From NCBI GenBank assembly GCA_035699745.1, contig DASSPH010000099.1, positions 129,841-193,840 on the forward strand: a DNA stretch of 64,000 nucleotides, read 5' to 3'. The DNA is from Vicinamibacterales bacterium. GTDB lineage: Bacteria; Acidobacteriota; Vicinamibacteria; Vicinamibacterales; 2-12-FULL-66-21. The stretch's first letter is position 1; every line of letters begins with the position of its first letter. Position numbers and translations under genes: made by a program. Below are positions 1-60,258 of this stretch, in pieces. The notes below the pieces were generated by a model, which was not told the origin of the DNA, did not search any database, and saw nothing but the letters and a program-made list of their open reading frames with translations.

Positions 1-832
1 TGCCGGCCGTCGGCACGAACACGTGATCCATGGGCACGCGATAGAACGCGCGCGCCAGCTCCTGCCGGCGCTGCTCGATCGCCGCCGTATAGCCGGCGCG
101 CGCCTGCCGGCCGAGGCCGACCGCGACGCGGCGCCCGGACTCGACGTCGCGCATCTGCACGTAGCCCGCCCCCGCAGGCAGCTCGGTCTCGGACCGGTCC
201 TCGGGCACCACGGCGATGACGTCGTGCCTGGCGGCGAGCAGCGACAGCTCCGGACTGGTCAGCGGCTCGTCGCCGGTGACGAAATCCGAGACGATGAAGA
301 TGACGCTCATCCGCTTCAGCGCGGTGATCAGATGGCGGATCGCGGGCAGCATCAGCGTCTGCCGCGCGGGCGATTTCAGCGCCCAGGCCTGCTCGAGCGC
401 CGTCCACGCCGATTCGCGGGTGCGTTTCGGCGGCGTCGACAGCAGCACCCGATCCGCGAAAGCCAGGAACCCGGCGTTGATCTGGTCCGCGATCGCCGAG
501 AACAGAATCGAGCCCGAGATGTAGGTCAGCGCCTCCCGCTTGGCGTGCGCCGCCGATCCCAGCGTCATCGATCGCGACACGTCCATCACCACCATCACGT
601 TCATCTCGCGCTCGGCGTGGGTGTGCCGCACGAACGGCGCCCCCATGCGCGCGGTCACGTTCCAGTCGATCCGCCGCACGTCGTCGCCAGGGCGGTACGG
701 CTGGTGCTCGTCGAAGTCGAACCCGGGGCCGCGCATCGGACTCTGGTAGGTCCCGACGCGCTGGTTGCGGATCTTGCGGGCGGTCGCCACCTCGATGTAG
801 CGCAGCTCGCGCATGACGTGCTCGGGAATCAT
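1..832 (-). CDS. DUF58 domain protein (partial; C-terminus lies beyond window start), MoxR partner
   Basis: Reverse-strand translation from ATG at 830-832 gives MIPEHVMRELRYIEVATARKIRNQRVGTYQSPMRGPGFDFDEHQPYRPGDDVRRIDWNVTARMGAPFVRH..., the DUF58 hallmark region. The frame stays open to the window edge (>275 codons). It starts 17 nt after the moxR stop. It is absent from the supplied ORF track because no stop codon falls inside the window. Confidence 0.7.
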   Translation of the reverse strand, partial: MIPEHVMRELRYIEVATARKIRNQRVGTYQSPMRGPGFDFDEHQPYRPGDDVRRIDWNVTARMGAPFVRHTHAEREMNVMVVMDVSRSMTLGSAAHAKREALTYISGSILFSAIADQINAGFLAFADRVLLSTPPKRTRESAWTALEQAWALKSPARQTLMLPAIRHLITALKRMSVIFIVSDFVTGDEPLTSPELSLLAARHDVIAVVPEDRSETELPAGAGYVQMRDVESGRRVAVGLGRQARAGYTAAIEQRRQELARAFYRVPMDHVFVPTAG

Positions 833-848
833 CTTCTTCCGATGTTCG

Positions 849-1886
849 TCATGGGATCGGCACCGATCGCAGCAGCTCGTGGACGATCTCGTCGGCGTGG
901 ACGTTCTCCGCCTGCGCCCGCACCGTGCGCGCCAGGCGGTGGCGCGTGGCGTCGGTGAAGACTTCCTTGACGTCCTCCGGCAGCGCCCAGGTGCGGCCGT
1001 GCAGGAACGCGGTCACCCGGGCCAGCGCGAGCAGGTGCTGGTACGAGCGCGGCGAGATGCCGAGCGCGAGCAGCTCGCGCAGATCCCCCCGGCCGACGCT
1101 GCCCGGATCGCGCGTGGCGCGGCCGAGACGGACGATGTACTCGAGGATCTTCGGATCGATGTACACCGCCTGCCCGATGAAGTCGCGCAGCACGGTGACG
1201 TCGGACGGCGAGACGCGGTGCGCGATGCTCTGGCTCATGCGCTTCTGCAGCATCTCGACCTCCTCCCCTTCGCTCGGGTAGCCGACGCGCAGCATCATCG
1301 AGAAGCGATCGAGCTGCGCTTCCGGCAGCGTGTACACCCCCTCCTGCTCGACCGGGTTCTGCGTCGCGAGCACCCAGAACGGGTCGTCGAGCGGGAACGT
1401 GGTGTCGGCGAGCGTGACCTGGCGCTCCTGCATCGCCTCGAGCAGCGCGCTCTGGGTCTTCGGCGTGGCCCGGTTGATCTCGTCCGCGAGCAGGATGTTG
1501 GTGAAGACCGGCCCCTGCTCGATGCGGAAGGTCGCCGATTTCGCGTCGTAGATGCGCGTGCCGATGATGTCCGCCGGCAGCAGGTCCGGGGTCAGCTGGA
1601 CGCGCTGGAACCGCGCCGAGATCGCCTTGGCGATCGTCGTCGCCGTCAGCGTCTTGGCGACGCCGGGCACGCCTTCCAGCAGCAGGTGCCCGCAGCCGGT
1701 GCGGGCGCGCCCCTCCGAGACCGCGAAGGGAATCGCCGCGAACAGCGCCGTCAGCATCCGCCGGATCAGCACGTGCTGTCCGACGATCACCTTGCCGATC
1801 TCCTGCTCGAGACCGGTGACGATCTCCGCCGCCGTCTGTGCGTTCAACAAGGTCTGTTCCGTCATCTGATCGCCATCGGGGGTCAT
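849..1886 (-). CDS. moxR: MoxR-family AAA+ ATPase
   Basis: 345 aa. Walker A GVPGVAKT, LLADEINRATPKTQSALLEAMQERQVT and sensor region VLATQNPVEQEGVYTLPEAQLDRF are diagnostic of MoxR/RavA-type AAA+ proteins. Confidence 0.9.
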   Translation of the reverse strand: MTPDGDQMTEQTLLNAQTAAEIVTGLEQEIGKVIVGQHVLIRRMLTALFAAIPFAVSEGRARTGCGHLLLEGVPGVAKTLTATTIAKAISARFQRVQLTPDLLPADIIGTRIYDAKSATFRIEQGPVFTNILLADEINRATPKTQSALLEAMQERQVTLADTTFPLDDPFWVLATQNPVEQEGVYTLPEAQLDRFSMMLRVGYPSEGEEVEMLQKRMSQSIAHRVSPSDVTVLRDFIGQAVYIDPKILEYIVRLGRATRDPGSVGRGDLRELLALGISPRSYQHLLALARVTAFLHGRTWALPEDVKEVFTDATRHRLARTVRAQAENVHADEIVHELLRSVPIP

Positions 1887-2872
1887 AAGAGCAGCCAGAG
1901 GCCGGCGATGCCGAACGCCGCGAGCGCCAGCGCAGCGGGAAACAGGTCGCGATACTCGGTGGTGGTGCGGTAGCCGACCAGCGTGCGCTCTCCGGCCTCG
2001 ATCTCGTGGAGCGCCCTGGCGAGATCGCCGCCGCTGCGCGATCGCAGGTAGCGCCCGCCGGTCGCGGCCGCGAGATCGCGCAGCATCGACTCTTCGAAGC
2101 GGGTGCGGACGATGCGGCCCCCCTCGTCGCGGAGCGGAATCTCGCGGCCGTCCGGCAGCAGTTCGGGGACCGGCACCTCGTTGTCCGACCCGATGCCGAT
2201 GGTGTTCACGTGGTGCCCCTCCTGGCGGTAGACGCCGAGCTGGCGGTTGACTTCGCCGCCGTAGTCCTCGCCGTCGGAGAGCAGCACGAAGATCTTGCGG
2301 GTCCGCCGATCGTCCTTGCGGGCGACCTCCAGCGCGTTGCGCAGCGCCGCGCCGATGTTGGTGCCCATCAGGTTCTGCGGATCGTTCTCGATCCAGTCCA
2401 GATAGAACGCCACGGTGTCGAGGTCGCGCGTCAGGTACGACAGGATCAGCGAGCTCCCGGCGAAGCCGACCAGCCCCACGCGATCGATGTTCTCGGGCTT
2501 GTCCTTGAGGAACGTGCGGATCTCCTGGGTGGCGCGCGAGAACCGCGACGGCGCGACGTCACGCGCCCGCATCGAGGCCGAGCGGTCGAGCATGATGATG
2601 AGATCTTCACGCTCGTACTGCGGCGTGCGGATGCTGAGCGGCGCCTGCGGCCGGACCAGCGCGAACACCAGCGCGCCGCCGGCGATCGCCGCCAGCAGCA
2701 GCGCGCCCGCTTCTCTCTTCCAGGTGGATCGCCGCGACAGCGGCCTGAAGCGCGCCGCGATCGGCGACAGCCGACGCTGCCGCTGCAGGTAGAGAAACCG
2801 GACGGTCAGTGCCGCGAGCAGCACCGGGAGGATCTGCCACCACGTCGCGAGCTCCGGCCGGAGGACGCGCAC
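1883..2872 (-). CDS. VWA domain protein (BatA-like) with N-terminal TM segments
   Basis: 329 aa. MIDAS-like motif IIMLDRSASM...LVGFAGSS...LLSDGEDY; two hydrophobic helices at the N-terminus. Overlaps the moxR start by 4 nt. Confidence 0.85.
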   Translation of the reverse strand: MRVLRPELATWWQILPVLLAALTVRFLYLQRQRRLSPIAARFRPLSRRSTWKREAGALLLAAIAGGALVFALVRPQAPLSIRTPQYEREDLIIMLDRSASMRARDVAPSRFSRATQEIRTFLKDKPENIDRVGLVGFAGSSLILSYLTRDLDTVAFYLDWIENDPQNLMGTNIGAALRNALEVARKDDRRTRKIFVLLSDGEDYGGEVNRQLGVYRQEGHHVNTIGIGSDNEVPVPELLPDGREIPLRDEGGRIVRTRFEESMLRDLAAATGGRYLRSRSGGDLARALHEIEAGERTLVGYRTTTEYRDLFPAALALAAFGIAGLWLLL

Positions 2873-2873
2873 G

Positions 2874-3446
2874 CTAGCCGGTGCGCCGCGGAGTCTTGCT
2901 GCCGGGCGTGGGCGGCCGCAGCAGCTGCATCAACTGCCTGGGCGGAGTGTTCGGCTGCTTGCGCAGCTCGGCGGACAGCCGCGACGTCAGCTCGAAGTTG
3001 TACTTGGTGTCCCAGTCGCCGGGCGCGGCTTCGACCGCCTGGCGAAACTCCTCTTCGGCGCGGCTCAGCCAGCCGAGCCGCGCCTCGGGCTTCTCTTCGA
3101 CGCTCGCCTTCTGGAAGAATGCGCAGGCCGACCAGAAGTGGGGCGCCGCGTCGGCCGGCGCCTTCTGCGCCAGGTCGATCACCTCGTCGAAGCGCTGCAG
3201 CCGATAGAGCGCCCAGAGGTGGTTCGAGACGACGCGCGCGTGCTCGCGCGGCACCATCTGCTTGACCGCGGGCAGCGCCTCGAACCGCGCTTCCGCGATC
3301 TGATAGTTCGCCACCGCCGACTGCAGCTCGCCGTTCGCCAGATCGCGATCCGCGGCGCCGATCGCGCCCGACCAGCGTGCGTAGCCGAGCAGCGCCAGTC
3401 CCGTGGCGAGCAGAATCACGACGACCGTGGACCCGAGGACCTTCAT
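2874..3446 (-). CDS. TPR-like membrane-anchored protein (BatC-like)
   Basis: 190 aa. N-terminal hydrophobic anchor, then helical repeat region (ANYQIAEARFEAL..., HFWSACAFFQKAS...). Lies 1 nt upstream of the VWA gene. Confidence 0.55.
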   Translation of the reverse strand: MKVLGSTVVVILLATGLALLGYARWSGAIGAADRDLANGELQSAVANYQIAEARFEALPAVKQMVPREHARVVSNHLWALYRLQRFDEVIDLAQKAPADAAPHFWSACAFFQKASVEEKPEARLGWLSRAEEEFRQAVEAAPGDWDTKYNFELTSRLSAELRKQPNTPPRQLMQLLRPPTPGSKTPRRTG

Positions 3447-3462
3447 GGGAGGAACGACGATT

Positions 3463-6317
3463 CTACCGTGACGCGGGCGCCGCCGCCTTCGGAACTTTGC
3501 CGAGGCTGATCAGATTCGCCATCAGCTGGTAGGCGCCGACGGTGCCGTACGGGAGCTGGCGCCAGAGACCCAGCCCGACATACAGCCACCGGCCCTTGCC
3601 AAACCGCGCTTCGACAAGCGCCCCGCCTTTCGTCCCAGGGTTGTACTCGAACGGATCCTGGAGCTGGACGAGGTCCTTGTATTGCGCGTCCTTCTCGCCG
3701 AGGAAGTAGAGGCCGCGCTCCTGCACCCAGCCGTCCCAGGCATCCTGCCGGATGCGGTTCGGGTAGGTGAACGCGTGGTGCTCCTTCTCGAGGATCTGCA
3801 CCGGCGCGGTCTCGTCGGTGACGCGGTTGCTGCTGACCAGCGCCGGATAGGGACCGTACTGCGCCTGGTTGAACTCCGCCGTCTTGTTGTACTGGACGAT
3901 CAGCGTGCCGCCGTCCTGCACGTACTTGATCAGGCGGTGGTTGTAGGCCTTGAGATCCTCGCGGCGCTCGTAGGCGCGAATGCCCAGCATGATCGTGTCG
4001 AACCGCGACAGGTTGCCGTAGGCGAGCTCGTCGCTGTCGATCATCGTCACCCGCACGCCGAGCTGATCGAGCGCCTGCGGCACGAGATCGCCGACGCCCA
4101 TCACATATCCCATGCGGATGTTCGGCGCGACGCCGACGTCCACGACCTTCACCGTCGTCGCCGCCGGGATCACCTTGTGCCGCCGCTGGATGTGCGGGTA
4201 CTCGATCACCTGGTACCCCTCGGTGAACTGCTCGGCGCCGGTGAGGTCGGGCGCCTTCGCCCCGGTGGCGCGCGCCTTCAGCGCGAACTGCCCCGGCGCG
4301 GGCCCGGCGGGCGGCGTCACCGTGAAGCGCACCGTGCTGGTCTCCCCTTCCGCCGAGAGCGAGATCGGCGCGGAGGCCGGCGCGACCCGCCAGCCGGCCG
4401 GAACCTCGAGCGCGATGCTGGCGGTCGCCGCCCCCTTGGTGTTGTTCTCGACCGTGACACGCACGTCCTTGCGCCGATCGACGCCCGCCGCGACCTTCAC
4501 CGGGACGATCATCACGTTCGGGGAGACGGTCAGCGACAGGCCGGGCACGACCTTCAGCTCCATGCGCTTCTCGCCCGTCGCGAGATCGCCGGCGTAGCGA
4601 TACTGCACCGGCATCTCGTGCGTCACGCCGACCCCCTTGACGTCGAACTCGAACTGCGCGCGGAACGGCGTCGGCCGGAACGGCAGTCCGTACGGCGAAT
4701 CCGGCTCCAGCTCGGCGCGCCCGGACTCGGGCAGCCGGACCCAGTACGGGTTGGTCAGCTTCGCGTTCGCCGGGATCCTGACGTCGGACGCGCAGGAGAA
4801 CGCCGGCGCGCTGCGCAGCGGACCGAGGTTCTGGCACGCCGCGCCGCCGTCGAAGCCGGTGAGCGTGACGCTCTTGATCGAGGCGCCTTCCGGTCCGCGA
4901 TTCGCGACGCTGGTGGTGACGCGAACCGGCTGATTCCCCATCACGATCCCGTCGTCCGCAATCGCGTCGATGCGAAGTCCCTGCGCCAGGACGATCGCCT
5001 GCTGGTACTGCTGCTCCTTCTGCGCCAGGCGGAAGTCGATCTCGTACCTCGCGAGGTCGCCCAGGCCCATCCCGCCGAGCCCCGACCGCAGCGCCCGCAC
5101 CGCGGTCAACCCCTGCAGCAGCGAAGGCAGCGTCACCGACGGATCCTGCGAGCCCATGAACGCCTTCTGCGCGTCGAGGCCGTGATTGGTGATCTGCGCC
5201 AGTCCCTCGCGCAGACCCGCCGGGGCGTTCGCGCCGGCGTACTGGGAGAGGCTGGCAAGCGTGGTGTCGATCCCCTCGAACAGCGACGTCTCGTCCTTGT
5301 TCCTCTGCGACTCGATCGTCGTCAGCGCCAGGCGGTAGCGCGCGCCGCTGGCGCCGCCGAAGTTCTGAATCGGCGACCGCCCCTGGCACTTGTGCATGCT
5401 CGCGGCCACGCTGCCGACCTCGCCGATCGTGCAGCCGATCAGCGGGTCGTACATCGACGTGTCGATGGTCGCGTACTTCGCGTTGGGATCCGGTGGAGGT
5501 GGAGCCGGGAGATCACCGCCAGCCGGCGGCTGTCCCGCCGCAGCCCGACCCTGGCCGGCGGGCGGAGGCGGACCGCCCCGTCCTCGTCCGCGTCCCCCAG
5601 GCCCGCCGGGCCCGCCCAGCCGGCCGCCGAATCCACCGCCGCCCGGCTGATACAGCTTCTTGATCTGCCAGGGGCGCAGTCCTTCTTTCAGCTGCTCCGG
5701 ATACTTCGTGGGATCGGCCGCCGCGGCGAACGCTTCCGCGGTGAGCGTCGCCGACACCATGTGGTGCTGCCCGCCGCCGGTCCCCGTCGGGTTCAAGGTG
5801 ACGACCACGTCGGGGCGGATCGTGCGGATCATGCGCACGAAGTCGCCGAGGATCTCGTCGTGCCCCCACTTCTGGAGCGTCTCCTGCGGGCTGAACGAGA
5901 AGCCGAAGTCGACGGCGCGCGTGAAGTACTGCTCCGCCCCGTCCCAGCGGTGCGCCTGCAGCAGTTCCTCGGTGCGCAGCACGCCGATGGCGTCGAACAG
6001 CTCCGGGCCGATCTCGTTCTGGCCGCCGTCGCCGCGCGTCGCGGTCAGCAGCGCGACGCGCATGCCCTGGCCGCGTGCGTGGAGGGCGAGGATCCCGGTG
6101 TTCTCGTCGTCGGGATGCGCCGTGGTGTGCATGAAGGTGCCGACGGTGGTGAGCCGCCGCAGCGCCAGGCCGAGCCCCACCTGCCCTCGTGCGTCCGTCA
6201 GCGGCTCGACGAAGAACTGCGGCGAGCGCTGCTGCGCTCTCGCACCGAAAGCCAGTGCCGAGACGGAAAGGGCCAGGACGCCCGACGCCAGAACGGACCG
6301 GGGAGCTTTCATGAGCA
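3463..6317 (-). CDS. PIG-L/LmbE-family deacetylase fused to a C-terminal ThuA/GATase1-like domain, with signal peptide
   Basis: True start MLMKAPRSVLASGVLALSVSALAFGA at 6317; the track merges it into a spurious 1985-aa ORF (3463..9420). Contains the HTTAHPDDE motif of PIG-L deacetylases. The C-terminal 250 aa (MGYVMGVGDLVPQALDQLGVRVTMIDSDEL...LIVQYNK) resemble the ThuA/class-I amidotransferase-like fold. A Gly/Pro-rich linker lies in the middle. Confidence 0.75.
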
Positions 6318-6320
6318 TGC

Positions 6321-9257
6321 CTAGAACGCGAACTTGAACCCGAGCTGGAACTTCCGCTGCTCGTAGCCGTTCAGCGGCAGGAAGTCCTTGCCTTCGGCCG
6401 GCAGGCTGGTCAGGGACGAGACGACGGTGCCGAACACCAGCGGCGAGAGCACGTTGCCGGCGGTGTCGACGTTGACGCCGTTGCGGACGCCCGAGGTCTG
6501 CACGATGTTGAAGATGTTCTTGAACTCGCCGAGGATCTCGACGCGGCGGGTGCCGCCCAGCGGAATGAACCGCGACAGCCTCGCGTCGACGTTCCACCGC
6601 GCCGGCAGATAGTACGAATTGCGTCCGACGTTCAGCGGTCGATCGTTGTTGTTGCCATCGCCGTTGAGGTCGCGGTTGCCGGTCAGCGTGAACGGCAGCC
6701 CGCTGTTGAACTGCAGGATGACGCCGACCTGGTTGTCGCTGAGCAGCCGGCGCAGCGCGCCCGGGCCGCGGGTGACGCGCGACATCGCGACGATGCTGCC
6801 GTTGAACGAGTGGCGCGTGTCGAGGGCGTTCGGACCCTTGTCCCGCTCGAGGTTCTGCGGATCGGAGCGCGGCTGATCGCCCTGGACCGACAGCGTGGCG
6901 CCCGCGAGCGGCGCCGTGTCGATGCCCTTGCCGAGCGTGTAGTTCAAGTCCCACTGCACGCCGCTGGCCGAGCGCTTGCCGAAGGTGAGCAGCAGCGCCT
7001 TGTAGGTCGACTCGCCCGGCGACTGGACGACGTTGATGTTGTTGAACCGCGGATCGAGGCGCGTGCCGGCGTTGACCGTCGTGCTGTAGATGCCGCGGCC
7101 GTCCGCCAGCGTGCCGATCGGGTTGATCGGATTGATATTGGTGATGACCGGCAGGTTGTAGCCGCGGTTGTAGACCACGCCGATCGAGCCGTTGTACGCC
7201 TTGCCAAACCCGCGCGCGTACTGCGCGCTGTTCTGGATGTTGTAGGCCAGCTCGAGATCCGGATCGGGCGCGAAGATCGACTGCGCCGGGAGCACCGCGC
7301 CGGCCGGCAGGTTCGACAGCGTGCCCGGGAACGCCGGCGCGCCGATGCCCGTCGCCGCCACCGAATACGTCGTCCGGGCCGGCAGGCCGTTCTGCTGGAT
7401 CGCGTTCTCGTAGACGGCGAGCAGCGGCTGGTCGTACATGATGCCGGTGCTGGCGCGCACGACCTGGTCCTTCTTCTCGCCGAGCGTCCACGCGACGCCG
7501 AGGCGCGGCCCCCACTGGTGGGTGTGATCCTTGAAGCTTCGCGAGTACGCAAACGGCGCGCTGCCGTTCGCCTCCGGGTAGAAGTAGGAGTCGTAGCGGA
7601 CGCCGTAGAGGACCTTCAGATCCGACGTGAGCCGCCAGTCGTCCTGCCAGAACGCGCTGAACAGCTGACTGTTCATCTTGAAGTTCGGATCGCCGATCAC
7701 CTGCGCGAACGTGGTGTAGCCGCGCGGATTGGTGCCGTTCACGGCCGCCAGATAGGCCGCCACCGTCGGGAACGTGTAGGTCGTCGTCAGCGCCACCGCG
7801 CGCGTATCGGCGACGAACTGGTAGTCGATCCCCGCCTTGAAGCTGTGGCGCCCGCGGATCAGCGTGAAGTTGTCGAGCACCTGCGTGATCCCCTGGACGA
7901 AGTCTTCGCCGTCCGACGTCGGGCGCCCGAAGTTGATCGCGTTGCTGATGTTCACCGAGATGCCGGTTGGCGCCCCTTCGTGCGCGGTGCGCGACTGATG
8001 CCGCCGCGCGTACTGCACCCGGAGCTCGTTCAGCCGGTTGGCGCCCCAGTTCGACACGAACTGCGCCGCCGTCGAGCTCATGCGATCGGCGAAGTCGAAG
8101 CCGCGCTCGATCGCCGTGATGCCGCCGGCGCCGCCGTTGTACGGATTGTTGTTGGAGAACAGATTGGTGCGGAGGGTCAGCCGGTGTCCCGCGGCGAGCT
8201 GCGCGTCGATCTTGCCCAGGAAGAACCGCACGTTCTGATACGCCGGCACCGAGTTCGGCTGCGCCGGCAGCCCCACCTGCGCCACCAGCGCCGGCGTGAA
8301 GGTGAAGGTATTGGTCATGTCGCGGTACGTCCGCTCGAACCCGGCGTAGTAATGCACGCGATCCCGGACGACCGGCCCGCCCGACGACGCGGTGACCGTA
8401 TTGACGACGTCTTTCGGCTTGTTCTCGGCGGTCCGCGGGGTGATCGTGGTGTAGAAGGGATAGGCGCTGAACGGCGTGCGGCGGAAGCGGTAGCTCACGT
8501 CGCCGCGCAGCCTGTTCGTGCCCGACGGCGTGATCGCGTTGTAGACCAGCCCCATCGTCTGGCCGAATTCCGGCGCGTAGCCGCTGGTCGTGACCTTGAC
8601 TTCGCCGATGGCGACCTCCGACATCGGCATCAGGCGCAGCCCGGCGCGGTCCTTCTGCGTGTTGGTGTTGCCGTCCATCTGATAATTGATGCGCAGCAGC
8701 GAGCCGTTGGCGCTGAAGCGCGGCACGCCGAACTCGGAGTTCTCGAGGCCGCTGACGCCGGGCTGCAGCAGCGCGAAGTTGTACGGGTTGCGCGACACCA
8801 GCGGCAGATTGTGGATCTCGCGCTCGTTCAGATTGCGCCCCACGTCGATCTTGCCGAGATCGACGACCGCGGCCTCCGACTGCACCGAGACGACCTCGGT
8901 GATCCCGCCGATCTCCATCTTGATGTTGACGACCGCCGCCGCGCCCGCGGTGATCGGGATGCCGGTCTGCTCGTGCTTCTTGAAGCCGGCGAGTTCGGCC
9001 GCCACCGTATACGCGCCGAGCGGCAGGAGCGGCGCGCGATAGAGCCCGTTCGCGTCCGTGACGACGACGCGCTCGGCGCCGGTGTCGGTGTTGCGGATCG
9101 TGACGGTGACGCCGGGAAGCAGTCCGCCGGATGCATCGGTAATGGTCCCCTCGATGGTGCCGTTCACGGCCTGCGACTGCGCGCCGGCGGTGCCCGCCAG
9201 CATGAGCAGCGACAGGACCAGCACGGCCACTCGACGTGTTCCGCCTGCGACGTTCAT
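6321..9257 (-). CDS. TonB-dependent outer-membrane receptor with N-terminal carboxypeptidase-regulatory-like domain
   Basis: 978 aa. Signal peptide; N-terminus GTIEGTITDASGGLLPGVTVTIRNTDTGAERVVVTDANGLYR (CarbopepD_reg-like); plug/barrel-like body; C-terminal aromatic terminus ...GFKFAF. Stop at 6321-6323, 1 nt before the start of the deacetylase gene. Confidence 0.85.
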   Translation of the reverse strand: MNVAGGTRRVAVLVLSLLMLAGTAGAQSQAVNGTIEGTITDASGGLLPGVTVTIRNTDTGAERVVVTDANGLYRAPLLPLGAYTVAAELAGFKKHEQTGIPITAGAAAVVNIKMEIGGITEVVSVQSEAAVVDLGKIDVGRNLNEREIHNLPLVSRNPYNFALLQPGVSGLENSEFGVPRFSANGSLLRINYQMDGNTNTQKDRAGLRLMPMSEVAIGEVKVTTSGYAPEFGQTMGLVYNAITPSGTNRLRGDVSYRFRRTPFSAYPFYTTITPRTAENKPKDVVNTVTASSGGPVVRDRVHYYAGFERTYRDMTNTFTFTPALVAQVGLPAQPNSVPAYQNVRFFLGKIDAQLAAGHRLTLRTNLFSNNNPYNGGAGGITAIERGFDFADRMSSTAAQFVSNWGANRLNELRVQYARRHQSRTAHEGAPTGISVNISNAINFGRPTSDGEDFVQGITQVLDNFTLIRGRHSFKAGIDYQFVADTRAVALTTTYTFPTVAAYLAAVNGTNPRGYTTFAQVIGDPNFKMNSQLFSAFWQDDWRLTSDLKVLYGVRYDSYFYPEANGSAPFAYSRSFKDHTHQWGPRLGVAWTLGEKKDQVVRASTGIMYDQPLLAVYENAIQQNGLPARTTYSVAATGIGAPAFPGTLSNLPAGAVLPAQSIFAPDPDLELAYNIQNSAQYARGFGKAYNGSIGVVYNRGYNLPVITNINPINPIGTLADGRGIYSTTVNAGTRLDPRFNNINVVQSPGESTYKALLLTFGKRSASGVQWDLNYTLGKGIDTAPLAGATLSVQGDQPRSDPQNLERDKGPNALDTRHSFNGSIVAMSRVTRGPGALRRLLSDNQVGVILQFNSGLPFTLTGNRDLNGDGNNNDRPLNVGRNSYYLPARWNVDARLSRFIPLGGTRRVEILGEFKNIFNIVQTSGVRNGVNVDTAGNVLSPLVFGTVVSSLTSLPAEGKDFLPLNGYEQRKFQLGFKFAF

Positions 9258-9445
9258 TCGTCCTCCCGATATCCGGAATGGGTGTGCCGCCCGTTACGAC
9301 CACTCGCGGCGAATTGTTTACCCTTTTTCGCGAGCCCCGGCGCGCCGCGGTGCACGCGCGCGGTGGACGAACGGTCCGAATTCGAGAGTGTAGTCGATGC
9401 GCGGCGCGCACGGGGCGCAATCGCGGGGCAGGAACCAGAAGGAAG

Positions 9446-9473
9446 GCGGCGACGCACGCATTGCGCGTCGCCC
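9446..9473 (-). terminator. GC-rich imperfect palindrome downstream of the small lipoprotein ORF (putative terminator hairpin)
   Basis: GGCGACGCACGC-ATT-GCGCGTCGCC, about 35 nt 3' of the 9511 stop on the minus strand, followed on that strand by CCTTCCTTCTGGTT. No clean U-tract. Confidence 0.3.
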
Positions 9474-9510
9474 GGAGTCGACGATGCGGCGGGTGATCCC
9501 GCGGACCGCG

Positions 9511-9669
9511 TCAGCGGCGCAGCAGCGCGACGATGCCGACGACGACGACCGCCGCGATGACGATGCCGACCCAGAAGCCGGCCTTGAAGATCCCGCCGAC
9601 CACCTCGCAGCCGGCCAGCGAAACGGCCAGCAGCACGACGAGCAGCAAACGAGCGCTATAACTCAACAT
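9511..9669 (-). CDS. Small lipoprotein (52 aa), entericidin-like architecture
   Basis: MLSYSARLLLVVLLAVSLAGCEVVGGIFKAGFWVGIVIAAVVVVGIVALLRR. Lipobox L-A-G-C, then an amphipathic/hydrophobic C-terminal helix. Below the 60-aa cutoff of the supplied ORF track. Lies in the divergent intergenic region between the TonB receptor and the DUF2071 gene. Confidence 0.4.
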   Translation of the reverse strand: MLSYSARLLLVVLLAVSLAGCEVVGGIFKAGFWVGIVIAAVVVVGIVALLRR

Positions 9670-9744
9670 TGCAGCACCATCCCCGCTCCGGTTCTTTCAC
9701 GACTCGTGCCGTGGCGGGCGCGCCGTTTGCGTCCGGACACACCG

Positions 9745-10509
9745 ATGAGCGACTTCAACCATCGCATCCTCGACGACACCTCGCACCGGCCGTGGCCGAT
9801 GCCGGCGGGACCGTGGCTGATGACGCAGACCTGGAACGACCTGCTCTTCGCGCACTGGCCGGTCGACGTCCGGGCGCTGCGCGACCGGGTCCCGCCGTCG
9901 TTCGAGCTGGATCTGTTCGACGGGCAGGCCTGGCTGGGGATCGTGCCCTTCCACATGACCAACGTCGCCCCGCGCCTGGTGCCCCCCCTGCCGTGGGTCT
10001 CCGCGTTTCCTGAGCTGAATGTCCGAACCTACGTTCGGATCGGCGATAAGCCCGGTGTGTACTTCTTCAGCCTCGACGCCGGCAACCGGGTCGCCGTGGG
10101 GGCGGCCCGTACGCTCCTGAACCTGCCTTACTACACGGCCGAGATGGCGGTCACGGCCGACTCGGGCCGGATCCGGTACGAAAGCCGCCGCCCCGACCCG
10201 CCGGCCGAGTTCCGGGCGACGTATCGCGGGCTCGGAGGTCCCCGGCCGCCGCAGCCGGGCACGCTCGAATACTTCCTGACCGAACGCTATTGCCTCTACG
10301 CGGTCAATCACCGGCACGTCGCCTACCGTCTCGACATTCACCATCCGCCGTGGCCGCTCGAAGCAGCGGAAGCGGAGATTCCGCTGAACACGATGGCCGG
10401 CGCCGCAGGGATCCGGCTGCCGTCGATGGCGCCGCTCCTCCACTTTGCGAAGCGCCAGGACATGGTCTGCTGGGCGCCGGAGATGCTGAGCCGGGACCGC
10501 GCGTTCTGA
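9745..10509 (+). CDS. DUF2071 (YqjF-like) domain protein
   Basis: True start MSDFNHRILDDTSHRPWPMPAGPWLMTQTWNDLLFAHWPV at 9745; the track's 9397 start adds an Arg/Asp-rich junk extension. The W-rich conserved N-terminus is typical of DUF2071. Confidence 0.7.
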   Translation: MSDFNHRILDDTSHRPWPMPAGPWLMTQTWNDLLFAHWPVDVRALRDRVPPSFELDLFDGQAWLGIVPFHMTNVAPRLVPPLPWVSAFPELNVRTYVRIGDKPGVYFFSLDAGNRVAVGAARTLLNLPYYTAEMAVTADSGRIRYESRRPDPPAEFRATYRGLGGPRPPQPGTLEYFLTERYCLYAVNHRHVAYRLDIHHPPWPLEAAEAEIPLNTMAGAAGIRLPSMAPLLHFAKRQDMVCWAPEMLSRDRAF

Positions 10510-19935: not shown

Positions 19936-20396
19936 CTGCTTCGCGTCCGGCCCGGCTCGTCGTTATCGCGTGGGTCCTTACCGGGATCGCCCTCGGGCTC
20001 GGCACCTATACATTCGCCTACGCGAAGGGGTATTCGTACCTGACCAACGATCCCGCGGCGTGCGCCAACTGCCATGTCATGCGCGACCACTACGCCGCCT
20101 GGACGCGCTCGAGCCACCGCGCCGTCGCCGTCTGCAACGACTGTCACACGCCGCCAGGCGTCGTCGGGAAGTACACGACCAAGGCGCGCAACGGTTTCTG
20201 GCACTCGTTCTATTTCACGACGGGGCGGTATCCCGATCCGCTGCGGATCACGCCGCGCAACCACGAGGTGGCCGAGATCGCCTGCCGCAAATGCCACAGC
20301 GAGCTGACCGCCTCGATTGATCCGGCACACATGGAGACAGGGCGCGGCGGCCTCTCCTGCACCAGGTGCCACAACGACGCAGGACACATCGAATGA
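19932..20396 (+). CDS. nrfH: NapC/NirT-family tetraheme cytochrome c, NrfH
   Basis: Start MTASRPARLVVIAWVLTGIALG (TM anchor). Four CxxCH motifs: CANCH, CNDCH, CRKCH, CTRCH. Start ATG overlaps the stop of the FG-GAP gene (ATGA). Confidence 0.85.
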   Translation: MTASRPARLVVIAWVLTGIALGLGTYTFAYAKGYSYLTNDPAACANCHVMRDHYAAWTRSSHRAVAVCNDCHTPPGVVGKYTTKARNGFWHSFYFTTGRYPDPLRITPRNHEVAEIACRKCHSELTASIDPAHMETGRGGLSCTRCHNDAGHIE

Positions 20397-21772
20397 AGCG
20401 CCCGATCCCAGCGCCGGTCCTCATTGCCGCGTTTGCCGCGATCGCCGCGATTGCGGTCACGGCGCTCCTGGTGAACATCTTCAGCCGGCAGCAGGAAGGG
20501 CGGAACCCTTTCTACCGCGTCGTCGAGCTCGACGACCAGACGGTTGATCCCGCGGTGTGGGGCAGGAACTTTCCGCTGCAGTACGACAGCTACCGCCGGA
20601 CGGTCGATCAGGTCCGGACGCGGTACGGCGGCAGCGAGGCGGTGCCGCGGGCGCCGACGCAGGCCGATCCGCGCAGCGTCGTCGCGCAGTCGCGCCTCGC
20701 CGAGGATCCGCGGCTGAAGACGATGTGGGCGGGATACGCGTTCGCGCGCGACTTCCGCGAGGAACGCGGGCACGCCTACATGCTCGAGGACCAGACCTTC
20801 ACCGAACGCCAGATCGCGTCGCAGCAGCCCGGCACCTGCATGCATTGCCACGCGTCGGTCTACGTGCCGTACAAGCAGCTCGGCGGCGGCGACCTGATCA
20901 AAGGGTTCGAGACGATGAACCGGATGACGTATCAGGAGGCGCGGACGAAGGTGACGCATCCGGTCGCGTGCATCGACTGCCACGATCCATCGACGATGCA
21001 GCTGCGCGTGACCCGGCCCGGGTTCCTCGAGGGGATTGCGAAGGTGAAGGCGGCGCAGGGGGCCGCCGGCTACGACGTCAACCGCGACGCCACGCGGCAG
21101 GAGATGCGCGCCTACGTCTGCGGCCAGTGCCACGTCGAGTACTACTTCAAGGGTCCGGAAAAGCGCTTGACCTATCCATGGGACAAGGGGCTCAAGGCCG
21201 ACGAGATCCTCGCCTACTACGAAGAGTCAGGCTTCAAGGACTGGACGCACGCCGAGAGCGGCGCGCCGGCGCTCAAGGCGCAGCACCCCGAGTTCGAGAT
21301 GTGGAACCAGGGCGTGCACGCGCGATCCGGCGTCGCCTGCGCGGACTGTCACATGCCGTATCAACGCGTAGGGGCGATGAAGGTCAGCGATCATCACGTG
21401 CGCAGTCCGCTGCTCAACATCAACCGCGCCTGCCAGACCTGCCACCGCTGGCCCGAAGAAGAGCTGAAGGCGCGCGTCGAAACGATTCAGGACCGGACGT
21501 TCCAGGTGCGCAACGTCGCGATGGACGCGCTCGTCGCGCTGATCGGCGACATCAAGGGCGCGCGGGCGGGCGGCGCTGCCGACGGCGCGCTGGAGCAGGC
21601 GCGGCGCCACCAGCGGCGCGCGCAGTTCCTGCTCGATTTCATCGAGGCCGAGAACTCGATGGGATTCCACGCCGACCAGGAAGCGATGCGGATCCTGGCG
21701 CTGTCGCTCGACGAGACGCGCCGCGGCCAGCTCGCGCTGCCGGGGCGATCGTCCGGGGGCGGCACTCGCTGA
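20393..21772 (+). CDS. nrfA: Cytochrome c nitrite reductase, pentaheme subunit NrfA
   Basis: Start MKRPIPAPVLIAAF overlapping the nrfH stop (ATGA). Five heme motifs CMHCH, CIDCH, CGQCH, CADCH, CQTCH. Heme 1 is CxxCH, not the classical CxxCK. Confidence 0.9.
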   Translation: MKRPIPAPVLIAAFAAIAAIAVTALLVNIFSRQQEGRNPFYRVVELDDQTVDPAVWGRNFPLQYDSYRRTVDQVRTRYGGSEAVPRAPTQADPRSVVAQSRLAEDPRLKTMWAGYAFARDFREERGHAYMLEDQTFTERQIASQQPGTCMHCHASVYVPYKQLGGGDLIKGFETMNRMTYQEARTKVTHPVACIDCHDPSTMQLRVTRPGFLEGIAKVKAAQGAAGYDVNRDATRQEMRAYVCGQCHVEYYFKGPEKRLTYPWDKGLKADEILAYYEESGFKDWTHAESGAPALKAQHPEFEMWNQGVHARSGVACADCHMPYQRVGAMKVSDHHVRSPLLNINRACQTCHRWPEEELKARVETIQDRTFQVRNVAMDALVALIGDIKGARAGGAADGALEQARRHQRRAQFLLDFIEAENSMGFHADQEAMRILALSLDETRRGQLALPGRSSGGGTR

Positions 21773-22391: not shown

Positions 22392-23612
22392 TCACCTCTG
22401 ATCCGGACCGGCGCCGTTCCCCTGCTGGGCGAATACGTCCGCGATCTTCAGGGCAATCGTGTGCGTGTCCGCGAACGACGTGTTCGACAGGACGGCGACG
22501 ACAATGCCGTATTCCGGGAACGTCACCAGCGAAGACACGCGACCGCCGCGCAATGCTCCGTCGTGGCCGACGGTGCGCGTTCCCTTGCCCGCGGCCGTGG
22601 CGGTTTCGAGGTCCCAGCCAAGTCCGTACCCCGTCTCTTCTCCGGAAGACAGCCGCTGTGACGCCTGGAGCATCTGTACCGTCGCGGGCTTCAGCAGCTT
22701 GCCGCCGTTGACGGCCAGCGCGAAGCGCACCAGATCCGACGGGGTCGACAGGAACGCGCCGGCGCCTGCGGAGCAGGACACGTCGAGCGGCTCCGGCTCC
22801 TGCGGCCCATACCGCGGGTCGGCGCCGAACCTCGGGAAATAGTAGGTCGCCAGATCGGGCACGGCATCGGTGGTTGAATCGGCCGCCGTGTCGCGCATGC
22901 CGAGCGGCTCGAATACCTGCTTCTGCACGACGGCGAAGAACGGCTCCTTCGCCGCGGCCTCGATCGCAGCGCTCACCAGGACCCAGCCGTAGCTCGAGTG
23001 CTGGTAGCGCGCGCCAGGCTCGAACAGCAGCGGCCGGTCGGCGAACCGCTTGAACGCGTCCGCGGTGCGCTCGCAATGCTCCACGGTGGGCTCCTCGTCG
23101 CCCGCGTCGTTCCGGATCCCGGCGGTGTGCGCCATCAGATGCCGCAGCGTGACCGGCCATTGCTTGTCCGGGAACGATGGCACGTAGGTCTGGATCTCCG
23201 ACTCGAGATGGAGCTGCTCCCTCTCGAGCAGCAGACCGGCGGCCGCGGACGTCAGCGCGATCGACGCGCTCCCGATCTTGAAGCGCATGGCCGGTCCGAC
23301 CGGCACCTGGTTCTCGACGTCCGCCCAGCCGAGCCCCTCTGCCCAGACCAGCTCGCCGGCGGCGCCGACGGCGACGGACAGCCCGGGGAGATTCTGCGCC
23401 ACCAGGCCGGCGCGGGCGATCTGCCGCGCCTGGGCGGCAGCCGCCGACCACCTCGCCGGCGGCGACGAGAGCATCCGCGACGGCACGTGGCCCGGATCCT
23501 GATGGATCGGCCTCGCGGTCGCATTGACGTAGAGGAACAGGCCGACGACGAACGCGGCGATCAGCATCGGCGGGACGGCGAGCCAGACGAGCCACTTACG
23601 ATGGTTCAGCAC
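22392..23612 (-). CDS. Beta-lactamase-fold serine hydrolase family protein with degenerate catalytic motifs
   Basis: 406 aa. N-terminal TM; class C beta-lactamase/esterase-like fold. The canonical SxxK, YxN and HTG motifs appear as SASI, HSS and HDG. Confidence 0.7.
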   Translation of the reverse strand: MLNHRKWLVWLAVPPMLIAAFVVGLFLYVNATARPIHQDPGHVPSRMLSSPPARWSAAAAQARQIARAGLVAQNLPGLSVAVGAAGELVWAEGLGWADVENQVPVGPAMRFKIGSASIALTSAAAGLLLEREQLHLESEIQTYVPSFPDKQWPVTLRHLMAHTAGIRNDAGDEEPTVEHCERTADAFKRFADRPLLFEPGARYQHSSYGWVLVSAAIEAAAKEPFFAVVQKQVFEPLGMRDTAADSTTDAVPDLATYYFPRFGADPRYGPQEPEPLDVSCSAGAGAFLSTPSDLVRFALAVNGGKLLKPATVQMLQASQRLSSGEETGYGLGWDLETATAAGKGTRTVGHDGALRGGRVSSLVTFPEYGIVVAVLSNTSFADTHTIALKIADVFAQQGNGAGPDQR

Positions 23613-23679: not shown

Positions 23680-25041
23680 TCAAATCAGCCCCGCTCGCTT
23701 CACGGCATGGTAGCGGTTCACCAGCTCGACCCCCAGCCACTCCGGCTCGGCGTCTGCCATCAGGGCGTCGTTGGCGGCCAGCCGGTTGAACGCGTTCCGG
23801 CGCGCCTGCTCGTACAGATGCGCGGCGGCGATGTCGATCGGATCGGCGTGCTCGAACGGTTGCCGGATCATCTCGCCGACGACGCGCTCGCGGAGGCTGG
23901 CGAGCAGCACGAGGTGCCGGTGCCGCAGCAGGCGAAGCGCCGCCGCCAGCTCCGTGCTGTCCTCGTCGCGGAAGTTGGTGATGACGATCACCAGGGCACG
24001 CTTGCGCTGCCGCAGCAGCAGCGCGCGCGCCGCGGCCAGGTAGTCCGAATGCGTCGCGGTCGGCTGCACGTCGTACATCTGGCCCATCAACGCGTTCAAT
24101 GCGTGCTTTCCCTTCCGCGGAGGAAACGAGCGCTCGCCGCCCGGCGGCGTCCCGAACGTCATCGCGCCGACCGCATCCCCCTGCCCGAGCGCCACGTACG
24201 AGAGCAGCATGACGGCGTTCAGCACCTGATCGAAGTGCGCGGTGCCGGCCGACGCCGTGCGATCGTCCGCGCGCATCCGCCGGCCGCAATCGACGAGCAG
24301 CATCACGCATTGATCGCGTTCGTCCTGGAACTCGCGCACGATCGGCTTGTTCGCCCGCAACGTCGCACGCCAGTCGATGTGGCGGACGTCGTCGCCGAGC
24401 CGGTACTCCGACAGCTGCTTGAAGTCGGTGCCCTGCCCGCGCAGCTGATAGGTCTTGACGCCGATCTCCTGCAGCCGCCGGTCCCCGGCCAGCCAGGCAT
24501 AGCGCGCCACCTGCGCGAAGTCGGGAAACACGCGGCGGCGTTCGGCCGGACCGAGGCGCTGCTGCACCTCCCAGAACCCCCACCGCGAACGGATCCGCAC
24601 GTCGGCCGGCGCGAATGTCACGTCGCCGCGCATCGTCGGCGTCACGGTATAGGTGACGTCGACACGCTTGCCGCCCTGGATGGCCAGCCGCCGGATCGGC
24701 AGCCCCTCGACCGCAAGCGTCGCGTCGGCGTGGTCGTGGAGGTCGCCGCGCCATGTCGCCGTGCCCTGCGCCTCGATGGCCACGCGGATCGGGCGCTTGA
24801 CGCCGATGGCGAAGGCGGCGGGAAGGTCGCGGGTCAGCATGGGGGACGCCGCGCGCCAGCCTCGAAGCGTCAGCACGAGGTCCACGGCGGCGACCGCCGC
24901 GAGCAAGGCGGCCGCGGCGAGCGTGACCCGGCTCACCGCCGGCGCGGTCGCGCCGGCCACCAGCGCGAGCAGCGCGGTCGCGGCAAGCGCGGCCAGGCCG
25001 CTCAGCATCGTTCGCCCCGGAAGCGCACGCGTCATGGCCAT
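23680..25041 (-). CDS. DUF58 domain protein with N-terminal TM region
   Basis: 453 aa. RxxDWxxTLR region (DDVRHIDWRATLRANKPIVREFQDE) and VWA-like body (CVMLLVDCGRRM). Confidence 0.8.
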   Translation of the reverse strand: MAMTRALPGRTMLSGLAALAATALLALVAGATAPAVSRVTLAAAALLAAVAAVDLVLTLRGWRAASPMLTRDLPAAFAIGVKRPIRVAIEAQGTATWRGDLHDHADATLAVEGLPIRRLAIQGGKRVDVTYTVTPTMRGDVTFAPADVRIRSRWGFWEVQQRLGPAERRRVFPDFAQVARYAWLAGDRRLQEIGVKTYQLRGQGTDFKQLSEYRLGDDVRHIDWRATLRANKPIVREFQDERDQCVMLLVDCGRRMRADDRTASAGTAHFDQVLNAVMLLSYVALGQGDAVGAMTFGTPPGGERSFPPRKGKHALNALMGQMYDVQPTATHSDYLAAARALLLRQRKRALVIVITNFRDEDSTELAAALRLLRHRHLVLLASLRERVVGEMIRQPFEHADPIDIAAAHLYEQARRNAFNRLAANDALMADAEPEWLGVELVNRYHAVKRAGLI

Positions 25042-25053: not shown

Positions 25054-26017
<964 letters not shown>

Positions 26018-26031
<14 letters not shown>

Positions 26032-27184
26032 GCTGACCCTTCGTGTGAATGGCGAGAAGTTCGCGCCGCGCCGCTTCGAGCAGGACGATGGCGCGCCGCA
26101 GGTCCCCGGCCGCGGATCGGCCGGAGTGGTGAACGGCCGCCGCGAGCGCGCCGGCATCGAAGCCGGTCGCACGCGCGAGGGCGGCGAGCCGCTGGTCGCC
26201 GGACAGAACGGCGTAGCCGCTGATGCGGCGGCCGGCGGCCTGCTCGAGAGCGCGCAGCGATGCGGCGTGCAGCGACTCGCCGCCGCCGTGCTGCAGCGCG
26301 AACCGCCCGGTGCCGCGGATCTGATCGGCCAGCGACCGCCGCGCGGCGGCGGACGGCGCGGCGAGCGGCCCGAAGCGGCTCGCGCCTCGCCACAGCAGCG
26401 CCGCGAGCAGCGTGAGCCCGAGTGCGACGACCGGCGCTCCATGGCGCCAGATCAGCGCCGGCAGCGAGGGAAACTCCTCCTCCGACAGGAAGCGCACCTC
26501 GTCGCCGCGCCGCAGCTCGGTCGCGGCGGCGAACAGGCGGCCGTGCTCCCCTTCGAACAACGTGCGCTCCACGAACGGCGCCGCGTTGATCACGGTGACG
26601 CGTCCGCGGCCGATCCGCATCCGCATCGCCTGGATTCCACGGTTGTCGCGGAGCGCCCACTCGGGGACCCGCGTGCTCTCCAGCCACGTCATGCCGAGAT
26701 CGCACAGCCACAGGACGTTCGGACTCGCCGCCGGCCGGCCGCTCACTTCTTCAGTGACCTTGCGGCACGCGGGATCCGGCTCGCCCTTCCAGTTCTTCCA
26801 GTCGGGATAACGGCGTACGATCCCGGTCCAGTTCTCGAACGCCTCGTCGGCTTCGACCAGACGGTTGTCGACGACGAGACGGCCGCCCGATTCCACCCAC
26901 CGCTCGAGGGCGGCGCGGCGGTTGCGCGTCAGGCTCCAGTGCCACGTCGAGATCACGAGCACGGCGTTCGAGTCCGGCACCACGAGCATGCGATCCCATG
27001 CCGTCCTGGCGCCGAGCCGCTCCGCGAACCGCTGCGTCGCATAGAACGGATTGACGAGCGCCTCCCCCTTCGGCGGCATCGGGACCTTCACTTCTTCCCA
27101 GTACGTGTGATTCGCCACCCAGCCTGCCAGGAGCGCCAGCGGAACGGCCGCCAGGAGCGCGGTGACGATGCGCCTGCGCGTCAT
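26018..27184 (-). CDS. DUF4350-like protein (N-terminal TM, periplasmic domain, C-terminal TM)
   Basis: 388 aa. Architecture and operon position match DUF4350 proteins found upstream of MoxR/DUF58. Overlaps the moxR start by 14 nt. Confidence 0.6.
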
Positions 27185-32974: not shown

Positions 32975-33141
32975 GGCAAGCCTCCAAGTGCCGGCGGGGT
33001 TAGCTGACGGGCTCGAGGTTGGAGTCCTCTACCCACCTTCGCTCGCCTTGCGAGCTACGGTGGGATGCGCCCCGTGGCGCGGATATCGCGCCGGTGGTTC
33101 CCCCGCGACGCCGGGTCTGGCCGGCGTCTTAGGCTGATTCC
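32975..33141 (-). promoter_or_regulatory. Structured 5' leader of the flotillin-to-DUF58 operon
   Basis: About 165 nt between the predicted -10 element and the ATG. On the minus strand it contains GGCGCG-ATATC-CGCGCC and a nested hairpin CCCACC-GTA-GCTCGC-AAG-GCGAGC-GAA-GGTGGG. Confidence 0.4.
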
Positions 33142-33169
33142 ACTATACGCCCGCGCCCGGGGGAGTCAA
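33142..33169 (-). promoter_or_regulatory. Sigma70-like promoter (TTGACT-N16-TATAGT) for the flotillin operon
   Basis: Minus-strand TTGACTcccccgggcgcgggcgTATAGT (forward-strand ACTATA at 33142-33147, AGTCAA at 33164-33169). Confidence 0.5.
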
Positions 33170-53188: not shown

Positions 53189-53192
<4 letters not shown>

Positions 53193-56100: not shown

Positions 56101-56239
56101 CCGGCGACTGGGGCGCCGATCCCTGCTGCCGCGCGGCCGCGACGCGGCCGGCGATGAGGGCGATCAGCGCCGCCGTCGCGGCGCGCCGCGCAAACGTCAG
56201 GAAGCGGGAGATCTCGGGCATCCCTGCGGGCGCGGCCAT
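53189..56239 (-). CDS. PSCyt1/PSCyt2/PSD (DUF1549-DUF1553) multidomain protein
   Basis: 1016 aa. [20 protein letters not shown] (PSCyt1); [13 protein letters not shown] (DUF1549-type); typical partner of DUF1501. Confidence 0.85.
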
Positions 56240-60244: not shown

Positions 60245-60258
60245 CCGGCACCGGTTAC
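60241..60258. other. Perfect 8-bp palindrome GTAACCGG-CA-CCGGTTAC overlapping the TAA stop of the upstream gene
   Basis: Seen directly in the sequence. The stop codon TTA (reverse complement TAA) lies at 60255-60257, inside the right arm. Confidence 0.7.

Follow-up and report, generated by a model that had tools for sequence, protein, structure and literature searches.

We analysed a 64,000-nucleotide (nt) stretch, hereafter the window, of contig DASSPH010000099.1 from the metagenome-assembled genome (MAG) of a soil acidobacterium of the Vicinamibacterales (Acidobacteriota). In this high-GC DNA (~69%), six close-set minus-strand open reading frames (ORFs), read from the sequence, encode a TonB-dependent-receptor-like outer-membrane protein, a large secreted PIG-L protein, a 190-amino-acid (aa) protein with a TPR-like domain, a membrane VWA protein, a MoxR-family ATPase and a DUF58 protein (Table 1). 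We regard the locus as two units set side by side in this lineage, not as a fused machine. It is best explained, and we consider this fairly probable, as two separable units, a receptor/PIG-L cassette and a MoxR module, which have long been neighbours in one Vicinamibacterales clade, the module having its own promoter and being partly co-expressed with the cassette by read-through. An earlier sequence-only reading of the same DNA had taken the module to be hard-wired and transcriptionally fused to the receptor and deacetylase genes. That view finds little support, as the module also stands alone at the same site, the sampled PIG-L loci of other species lack it and a conserved -10-like hexamer precedes it. 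Because the units are separable and the module apparently has a promoter of its own, we advise against annotating or interpreting it as a single 'MoxR-assisted import system'.

Cassette and module on a shared backbone

The relatives share a synteny backbone made up of genes for an ATP-grasp protein, a DUF2071 protein and a small lipoprotein ORF at one end and for an amidohydrolase and a PadR protein at the other. Five loci on this same backbone (L086, L093, L097, L151 and L155) carry the module alone, with the cassette missing. In L093, L151 and L155 the homologue of the small lipoprotein ORF comes directly before the 190-aa gene, at a distance of about 100 nt, which places the cassette exactly between the small lipoprotein ORF and the MoxR module. 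L086 still keeps the final bases of the PIG-L gene (..ggcacgcggTAAACT), so that this locus represents a secondary deletion. Partial states are found as well: L120 has the receptor, a PIG-L remnant of ~46 aa and the module, while L105 and L106 have PIG-L and the module, with no receptor homologue found in the 780 nt upstream. The tree made from 190-aa proteins (like the PIG-L tree, a neighbour-joining (NJ) tree without bootstrap support) puts L093, L103, L097 and L086, all lacking the cassette, at separate, single positions within the clade that bears it, which implies at least three independent losses of the cassette. To judge from its sequences, the module persists in such loci apparently intact.

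Neighbours of the module and of PIG-L in other genomes

The module was followed through 80 metagenome loci and three long contigs (L085-L087), all found via the 190-aa protein. A PIG-L gene lies directly upstream, on the same strand, in 51 of the 76 informative module loci, and neither PIG-L nor a receptor is present in 14 of the 76. Where the 190-aa protein shares 65% or more identity with that of the window, PIG-L accompanies the module in 27 of 35 loci under a strict filter, and in 31 of 35 once L087, L088, L110 and L130, which that filter missed, are added. In the NJ tree the linked PIG-L genes form two paralogue clades, which are ~50% identical to each other. Locus L085 holds both paralogues in tandem (4369-9984; clade B, then clade A) between receptor and module, the second copy looking frameshifted in this long-read assembly. 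Read from the sequences, the two clades would be most simply explained by duplication in situ followed by differential loss.

An unrelated receptor (25-45% identity) stands in divergent orientation next to the module in 11 of the 76 loci, all of them in a more distant sub-clade whose 190-aa protein is 55-62% identical to that of the window. These loci (L138, L146, L147, L150, L152, L154, L156, L157, L161, L164 and L167), with the receptor 150-310 nt away, make up a second, different receptor/module neighbourhood.

From the PIG-L side, we sampled 80 loci of GTDB species representatives (L005-L084) among the matches listed, with PIG-L proteins 47-56% identical to that of the window. They belong to Vicinamibacterales, Bryobacterales and Terriglobia and represent other lineages and paralogues, not the nearest orthologues. 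A 190-aa homologue, VWA, MoxR or DUF58 gene was found within 10 kb in 0 of these 80 loci of other species among the matches listed. A homologous receptor lies directly upstream of PIG-L in 21 of the 72 analysable loci of the same sample, and it is the only recurrent neighbour in this sample. With 0 of 80 set against 21 of 72, receptor and PIG-L form a recurrent two-gene cassette that is normally apart from MoxR. The linkage, whose conservation the sequence-only reading had proposed to check in related genomes, recurs in module loci but does not hold generally. DUF1800 and DUF1501 genes lie downstream of PIG-L in some of the sampled loci.

A candidate promoter at the PIG-L/190-aa junction

The PIG-L and 190-aa genes are 16 nt apart in the window, and the hexamer TAGAAT lies across this junction. 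The PIG-L stop codon supplies its TAG, and between the hexamer and the ATG at 3446 there are 13 nt that lack a Shine-Dalgarno (SD) motif. In high-GC bacteria, a TANNNT-type -10 element at such a distance from a start codon that has no SD motif marks leaderless or short-leader genes. Among the relatives, 32 of 79 distinct upstream sequences show the pattern TAnAnT at -26 to -4 of the 190-aa start, compared with 1.9 expected from shuffles, and at the VWA, MoxR and DUF58 starts it occurs in 0 of 70, 0 of 28 and 0 of 28 sequences, respectively. The A/T-rich hexamer, seen in the forms TAGAAT, TAGACT, TAAACT, TACACT and CATAAT, precedes the 190-aa start codon by 6-13 nt or, where a palindrome is inserted, lies upstream of that palindrome. 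It is present in loci without PIG-L (L086, L093, L097, L103, L141, L151 and L155) and in others whose PIG-L stop codon is 60-230 nt further upstream (L087, L118, L121, L130 and L136).

The spacing from PIG-L to the 190-aa gene varies among the relatives from 10 to 221 nt, and many of the relatives have spacers of 75-220 nt that bear hairpins like those of repetitive extragenic palindromic (REP) elements. A perfect palindrome resembling REP elements or miniature inverted-repeat transposable elements (MITEs), GGGGTCAGATCTCGATTTTCG...CGAAAATCGAGATCTGACCCC, lies at the junction in L087 (~9930-9990), L097 (947-1013) and L116 (1562-1630); variants of it are found there in L118, L122 and L136, and unrelated palindromic or tandem repeats in L096, L100, L133 and L134. 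By comparison of these sequences, the REP/MITE-like palindrome is a repeated insertion at the junction in different lineages; neither it nor the unrelated repeats occur in the window.

The conserved hexamer, present with or without PIG-L, and the hairpin-bearing 75-220-nt spacers argue for an internal promoter, and the module probably has one of its own at this junction. Since a consensus scan of positions 1-10000 found neither a sigma-70-type promoter nor a minus-strand terminator, the proposal is one of comparative conservation only. As regards the single transcript of the sequence-only reading, the conserved hexamer speaks against it, and the lack of a terminator in the scan would permit read-through. 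A -10 element overlapping a stop codon would mean that in high-GC bacteria even genes only 16 nt apart, spaced as in an operon, can have a promoter between them.

A module of the Bat/Mxa type

Judged from its gene content, the MoxR part is a complete, self-contained six-gene module of the Bat/Mxa type, with TPR-like, VWA, MoxR, DUF58, DUF4381-like and VWA proteins, and the earlier claim that the locus is 'not a generic aerotolerance operon' finds no support in it. The 190-aa protein opens the module, at a BatC/MxaK-like position. Its TPR match is weak (TPR-S 22.6 bits, under the cut-off of 27.6), and a few of its 754 homologues bear precomputed TPR Pfam matches; the names given to homologues by the Joint Genome Institute (JGI) are 'TPR repeat protein' and, for one that is 74% identical, 'mxaK protein'. 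The 329-aa VWA protein has the topology of BatA/BatB, with two N-terminal transmembrane (TM) helices, an Arg-rich loop between them and a C-terminal TM helix, and it carries the DxSxS motif of the metal-ion-dependent adhesion site (MIDAS); on the NCBIfam BatB and BatA models it scores 68.5 and 62.2 bits, far under the equivalog cut-offs. Both the Walker A (GVPGVAKT) and the Walker B (LLADE) motifs of MoxR are intact.

The last ~15 codons of the DUF58 gene are lost at the window edge. Past this edge, relatives L001-L003 (PIG-L 81% identical to that of the window), L004 (61%) and L085-L087 add a 339-aa protein, with a weak DUF4381 match (E 4e-4), and then a second membrane VWA protein of 327 aa, which matches VWA above the cut-off and scores 110 bits on the BatA model, far below the equivalog cut-off. 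In L001, L085 and L086 this second VWA gene is followed by a convergent amidohydrolase gene.

Operons of the MRP type, in which MoxR is combined with DUF58, VWA and TPR genes, constitute a standard unit (PMC11834572), and internal promoters can occur in Bat clusters (PMC3557215). The Bat/MRP MoxR operons of B. fragilis, Leptospira, Borrelia, Francisella and Riemerella have in common with the module co-directional genes for MoxR (AAA_3), DUF58, DUF4381-like and TM/TPR-like proteins, as well as two membrane VWA proteins with MIDAS motifs and BatA/B-like topology. The order is permuted, however: TPR and VWA genes lead here and MoxR comes third, whereas Bat/MRP operons typically have MoxR first (PMC11834572). 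In addition, the module has no equivalents of BatD or BatE (as seen in the L001 locus) and, unlike Bat/MRP operons, is preceded in this clade by the receptor/PIG-L cassette on the same strand. MxaRSACKL has the same six-gene content (MoxR, DUF58, a ~330-aa protein, VWA, a small TPR-like protein and VWA), of which the module would be the circular permutation K-L-R-S-A-C. No methanol/pyrroloquinoline quinone (PQQ) dehydrogenase gene of the mxaF/xoxF type was found within 10 kb among the genes called in L001-L004 and L085-L087, nor among the scanned window genes. The components are all of known families; for the permuted order and the clade-specific place behind a receptor/PIG-L cassette no description was found in the literature searched.

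The window holds a second MoxR-DUF58 pair on the minus strand, with a MoxR gene at 25054-26442 (AAA_3 206 bits, long N-terminal extension) and a DUF58 gene at 23680-25041, followed on the same strand by a gene for a beta-lactamase-family protein (22392-23612). This genome thus has MoxR modules in more than one copy. A second, divergent MoxR gene is also seen a few kb downstream of the module in L110 and L119.

The receptor and the PIG-L protein

The receptor is laid out as a signal peptide, a CarboxypepD_reg domain, a conserved segment of ~125 aa in the plug position and a beta-barrel, and it matches the Pfam models OMP_b-brl_4 (251 bits) and CarboxypepD_reg (72.6 bits). The barrel is assigned to the 22-strand TonB-dependent receptor (TBDR) type because, of 16 homologues, 15 fit the TonB_dep_Rec_b-barrel model (best E 3.5e-11); the window receptor itself scores 22.6 bits on this model, under the cut-off of 27. 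Residues 116-245 form the conserved segment at the plug position, with many invariant residues in the homologue alignment. Pfam Plug was undetected in the window receptor, even at E<=10, and in each of the 16 homologues scanned, a phmmer search against PDB sequences did not confirm the plug segment, and a receptor profile search against PDB gave as its sole match a weak one to the Cir barrel (E 0.02). On the SusC-type model TIGR04056 the receptor scores 14.7 bits against a cut-off of 368, and the gene after it encodes the PIG-L protein, not a SusD-like lipoprotein.

The PIG-L protein begins with what reads as a typical Sec signal peptide and matches the Pfam models PIG-L (59.9 bits; cut-off 28.2) and NPCBM_assoc. 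Residues H66, P67, D68, D69, E70 and H183/H184 are invariant across 71 homologues; by analogy with MshB, we take the HPDD and HH residues to be metal ligands. In the AlphaFold2 (AF2) model (predicted local distance difference test (pLDDT) 75.7, predicted template modelling score (pTM) 0.67), an interrupted PIG-L domain with the Rossmann-like LmbE fold is followed by a helical bundle, several beta-sandwiches of the Ig-like/NPCBM_assoc kind and an alpha/beta domain at ~730-940. A Gly/Pro/Arg-rich low-complexity insert (GGGGFGGRLGGPGGPGGRGRGRGGPPPP...) in the catalytic domain (residues ~222-275; window ~5490-5650, minus strand) is predicted to be disordered (pLDDT ~30) and is kept as a feature across the homologues. 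The C-terminal domain is well modelled, with a predicted fold of the GATase1/ThuA type and no Cys nucleophile.

At this level of fold the previously proposed PIG-L/ThuA-like fusion is borne out, but at the level of sequence it is not. Even at E<=10 the last 225 aa gave no match to ThuA (PF06283), weak ones to Glyco_hydro_42M (E 0.029) and DUF2194 being all there were, and a profile search of the C-terminal domain against PDB sequences found nothing. A true ThuA domain in the same window, in a 1222-aa protein at 60255-63923 on the minus strand, served as positive control and scores 135 bits; the PIG-L C-terminal domain is therefore not a sequence member of ThuA. The 1222-aa protein also has DUF7133, a GH2-type sugar-binding-like domain and a C-terminal cupredoxin domain.

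Unlike the LmbE-type thiol-pathway deacetylases and amidases MshB, Mca and BshB, which are cytoplasmic proteins of ~230-300 aa, the window PIG-L protein has 949 aa, a signal peptide and three extra domain types, and on the MshB/Mca/BshB equivalog models it scores 51 bits against a cut-off of 277. Compared with pairs of a TBDR and a periplasmic glycan enzyme (like those of polysaccharide utilization loci; CE14 diacetylchitobiose deacetylase), the window cassette lacks a SusD-like lipoprotein, a glycoside hydrolase and a regulator. With more than 5,249 homologue matches at E<=1e-10, large secreted PIG-L proteins with Ig-like and GATase1-like domains constitute an uncharacterised Acidobacteriota family of >5,000 proteins, whose members are often paired with TonB-dependent receptors or with bshB1-bshA. 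Of the latter genes, bshA lies directly upstream of a large, secreted-type PIG-L paralogue in 13 of the 72 Acidobacteriota loci, including L007 and L034, among the matches listed; bshA there matches TIGR03999 with 514 bits and bshB1, often placed before it, TIGR04001 with 262 bits, both at equivalog level. This adjacency to bshA hints that some large PIG-L members may be linked to bacillithiol or GlcNAc-malate chemistry.

How the two units may work, and rival explanations

The first unit would be an uptake and processing cassette, in which a TonB-dependent-receptor-like barrel is combined with a Sec-exported, Zn-type PIG-L (CE14-like) deacetylase. From family and fold, its most likely role would be to import an N-acetylated glycan or amino-sugar conjugate (e.g. 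of the chito-oligosaccharide type) and to de-N-acetylate it in the periplasm. In the second unit, as in other MoxR-VWA systems, the cytoplasmic MoxR AAA+ ATPase and DUF58 may act together with periplasm-facing MIDAS-VWA/TPR membrane proteins, and transcription from the TAGAAT -10 element would give a leaderless or very short-leader mRNA. Read-through from the first unit into the second, possible in this genome because the gap is 16 nt and holds no terminator, would co-express the two without mechanistic interdependence.

Several observations weigh against this two-unit explanation. The full order of receptor, PIG-L and module is held down to ~50% identity of receptor and PIG-L, the adjacency of PIG-L and module is far more persistent than random gene order, and the occupation of the same slot by two PIG-L clades, with the tandem of L085, could reflect selection for linkage. 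In the window and its nearest relatives the PIG-L gene is only 10-35 nt from the 190-aa gene, and no terminator was found in the window scan. As for the promoter, no -35 element is recognisable before the candidate -10, the loci carrying the hexamer are partly related to one another, which inflates the counts, and in some loci the hexamer may be mere PIG-L stop-codon context or a deletion remnant. The same persistence through deep divergence, the short gaps and the unterminated junction are what an alternative draws on in which the MoxR/VWA/TPR module serves specifically to assemble or mature the upstream envelope system, the eight genes forming one operon with one function, be it metal loading of the Zn-dependent PIG-L, its remodelling or its docking to the receptor. 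PIG-L enzymes are metalloenzymes, and MoxR-VWA systems such as CoxD/E, NorQ/D and MxaRSACKL are metal-insertion or maturation chaperones, which also counts for such a role, as does the shared compartment: the PIG-L protein bears a signal peptide, and Bat VWA domains are oriented to the periplasm (PMC5700661). It is nonetheless unlikely, given that the module stands alone at the same site after repeated cassette losses, that most PIG-L homologues and receptor/PIG-L pairs in the sample have no MoxR neighbour, that a -10-like element is conserved before the module and hairpin-bearing spacers precede it in many lineages, that the second MoxR-DUF58 pair makes MoxR modules look like multi-copy general equipment, and that literature precedent was not found. 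That the Bat-type module is a periplasm-facing maturation or docking machine with the cassette as its client, through PIG-L metal loading or remodelling or through receptor coupling, we regard as a speculative and rather improbable idea, for which the adjacency across two PIG-L paralogue clades is the only positive hint. Were it true, it would assign the first concrete client to a Bat-like operon. Bat-like MoxR operons are widespread, and to our knowledge none has an established client; a module reproducibly placed behind a defined envelope cassette could offer a handle on this question, but the comparisons made here speak against a client of this kind. Of the MoxR-assisted envelope import and processing proposed in the sequence-only reading, the recurrent adjacency stands, and nothing positive for a functional link was found beyond it.

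At the other extreme, the adjacency could be purely historical and without any co-expression, the tight spacing having arisen by deletion of spacer DNA down to the module promoter. The candidate hexamer abuts or overlaps the PIG-L stop codon, spacers differ widely in length among the relatives with mobile palindrome insertions, and every partial gene combination exists, all of which would suit this account; on the other hand, read-through is hard to avoid where no terminator-like structure was found between PIG-L and the 190-aa gene, and an order kept in two thirds of the related loci is at odds with complete neutrality, so that we hold it, too, to be improbable. The MoxR/VWA genes were also considered as an anti-phage or conflict system of the MoxR-VWA ternary type, with the receptor as a phage-receptor-related partner, and this we reject as very improbable indeed. 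The MoxR protein has a weak PADLOC match (DolB, E 5e-5, 20.6 bits) and a sub-threshold one to bpMoxR (17.9 bits against 27); the other seven proteins have no PADLOC match, the gene content is canonical Bat/MRP and not of the MoxR-VWA-beta-propeller type, and the surroundings are those of a stable synteny block on the chromosome and not of a defence island. The explanation by two separable units with partial co-expression therefore remains the one we prefer.

The gene array and its coordinates

The six close-packed minus-strand genes described earlier were recovered at the same coordinates, apart from the PIG-L start, which moves from 6317 to 6318. Receptor, PIG-L, VWA, MoxR and DUF58 were confirmed by Pfam and NCBIfam, the TPR assignment of the 190-aa protein being the one that stayed below threshold. 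Two nt separate the receptor stop codon from the PIG-L ATG at 6318 and 8 nt from the ATG at 6312; the latter is the start in the NCBI model P0001 (949 aa), whereas the former gives 951 aa. The protein is 100% identical to the NCBI entry 'MAG TPA: PIG-L family deacetylase [Vicinamibacterales bacterium]'. A look-up of the exact 951-aa and 949-aa sequences gave no recorded contig, and the comparisons were made with homologues. The gap between the 190-aa and VWA genes is 1 nt, the VWA and MoxR genes overlap by 4 nt, and MoxR and DUF58 are separated by 16 nt; receptor and DUF58 genes have SD-like motifs. The PIG-L frame stays open for ~1030 further codons upstream, through the receptor gene, and the resulting 1985-aa ORF (3463-9420, minus strand) is a spurious, high-GC artefact. 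Upstream of the receptor, the small lipoprotein-like ORF is a conserved same-strand neighbour of the locus, annotated in L001 as a 54-aa gene. The intergenic region between the two is, by position, the presumed promoter region of the cassette, although the promoter scan found no consensus sigma-70 site within it.

Table 1 Features of the receptor/PIG-L cassette and the MoxR module in the window
Feature	Position	Strand	Basis
DUF58 protein (VWA-like, DxSxS present)	1..832	-	DUF58 165 bits
MoxR-family AAA+ ATPase, 345 aa	849..1886	-	AAA_3 212.8 bits (cut-off 27), AAA_lid_2 54.9 bits
Membrane VWA protein, 329 aa, GTG start	1883..2872	-	VWA_2 68.9 bits, VWA 53.1 bits
190-aa protein with N-terminal TM helix, helical TPR-like domain and conserved basic Pro-rich tail	2874..3446	-	Alignment, Pfam
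TAGAAT hexamer, candidate -10 element of the module	3460..3465	-	Comparative conservation
Secreted multidomain PIG-L/LmbE (CE14-type) deacetylase, 949-951 aa	3463..6318	-	Pfam and predicted structure
TonB-dependent-receptor-like outer-membrane protein, 978 aa	6321..9257	-	Pfam domains and sequence reading
Intergenic region upstream of the receptor gene, 253 nt	9258..9510	-	Shine-Dalgarno GGGAGGA 6 nt before ATG
Lipoprotein-like ORF, 52 aa	9511..9669	-	Lipobox LAGC and C-terminal hydrophobic helix, read from sequence

Other features of the window

A cyclic di-AMP (c-di-AMP) riboswitch (RF00379) is found at 32977-33145 on the minus strand, with 54.6 bits against a gathering score of 38. Directly downstream of it lies the gene for a 648-aa SPFH/Band-7 protein (31028-32974), an uncommon gene class for RF00379. 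The window also encodes an NrfA-type cytochrome c552 at 20366-21772 (plus strand) and, on the minus strand, a PSCyt1-ankyrin-prenyltransferase-like protein at 47302-49584 and a PSCyt1/PSCyt2/PSD1 (DUF1549/DUF1553) protein at 53189-56239.

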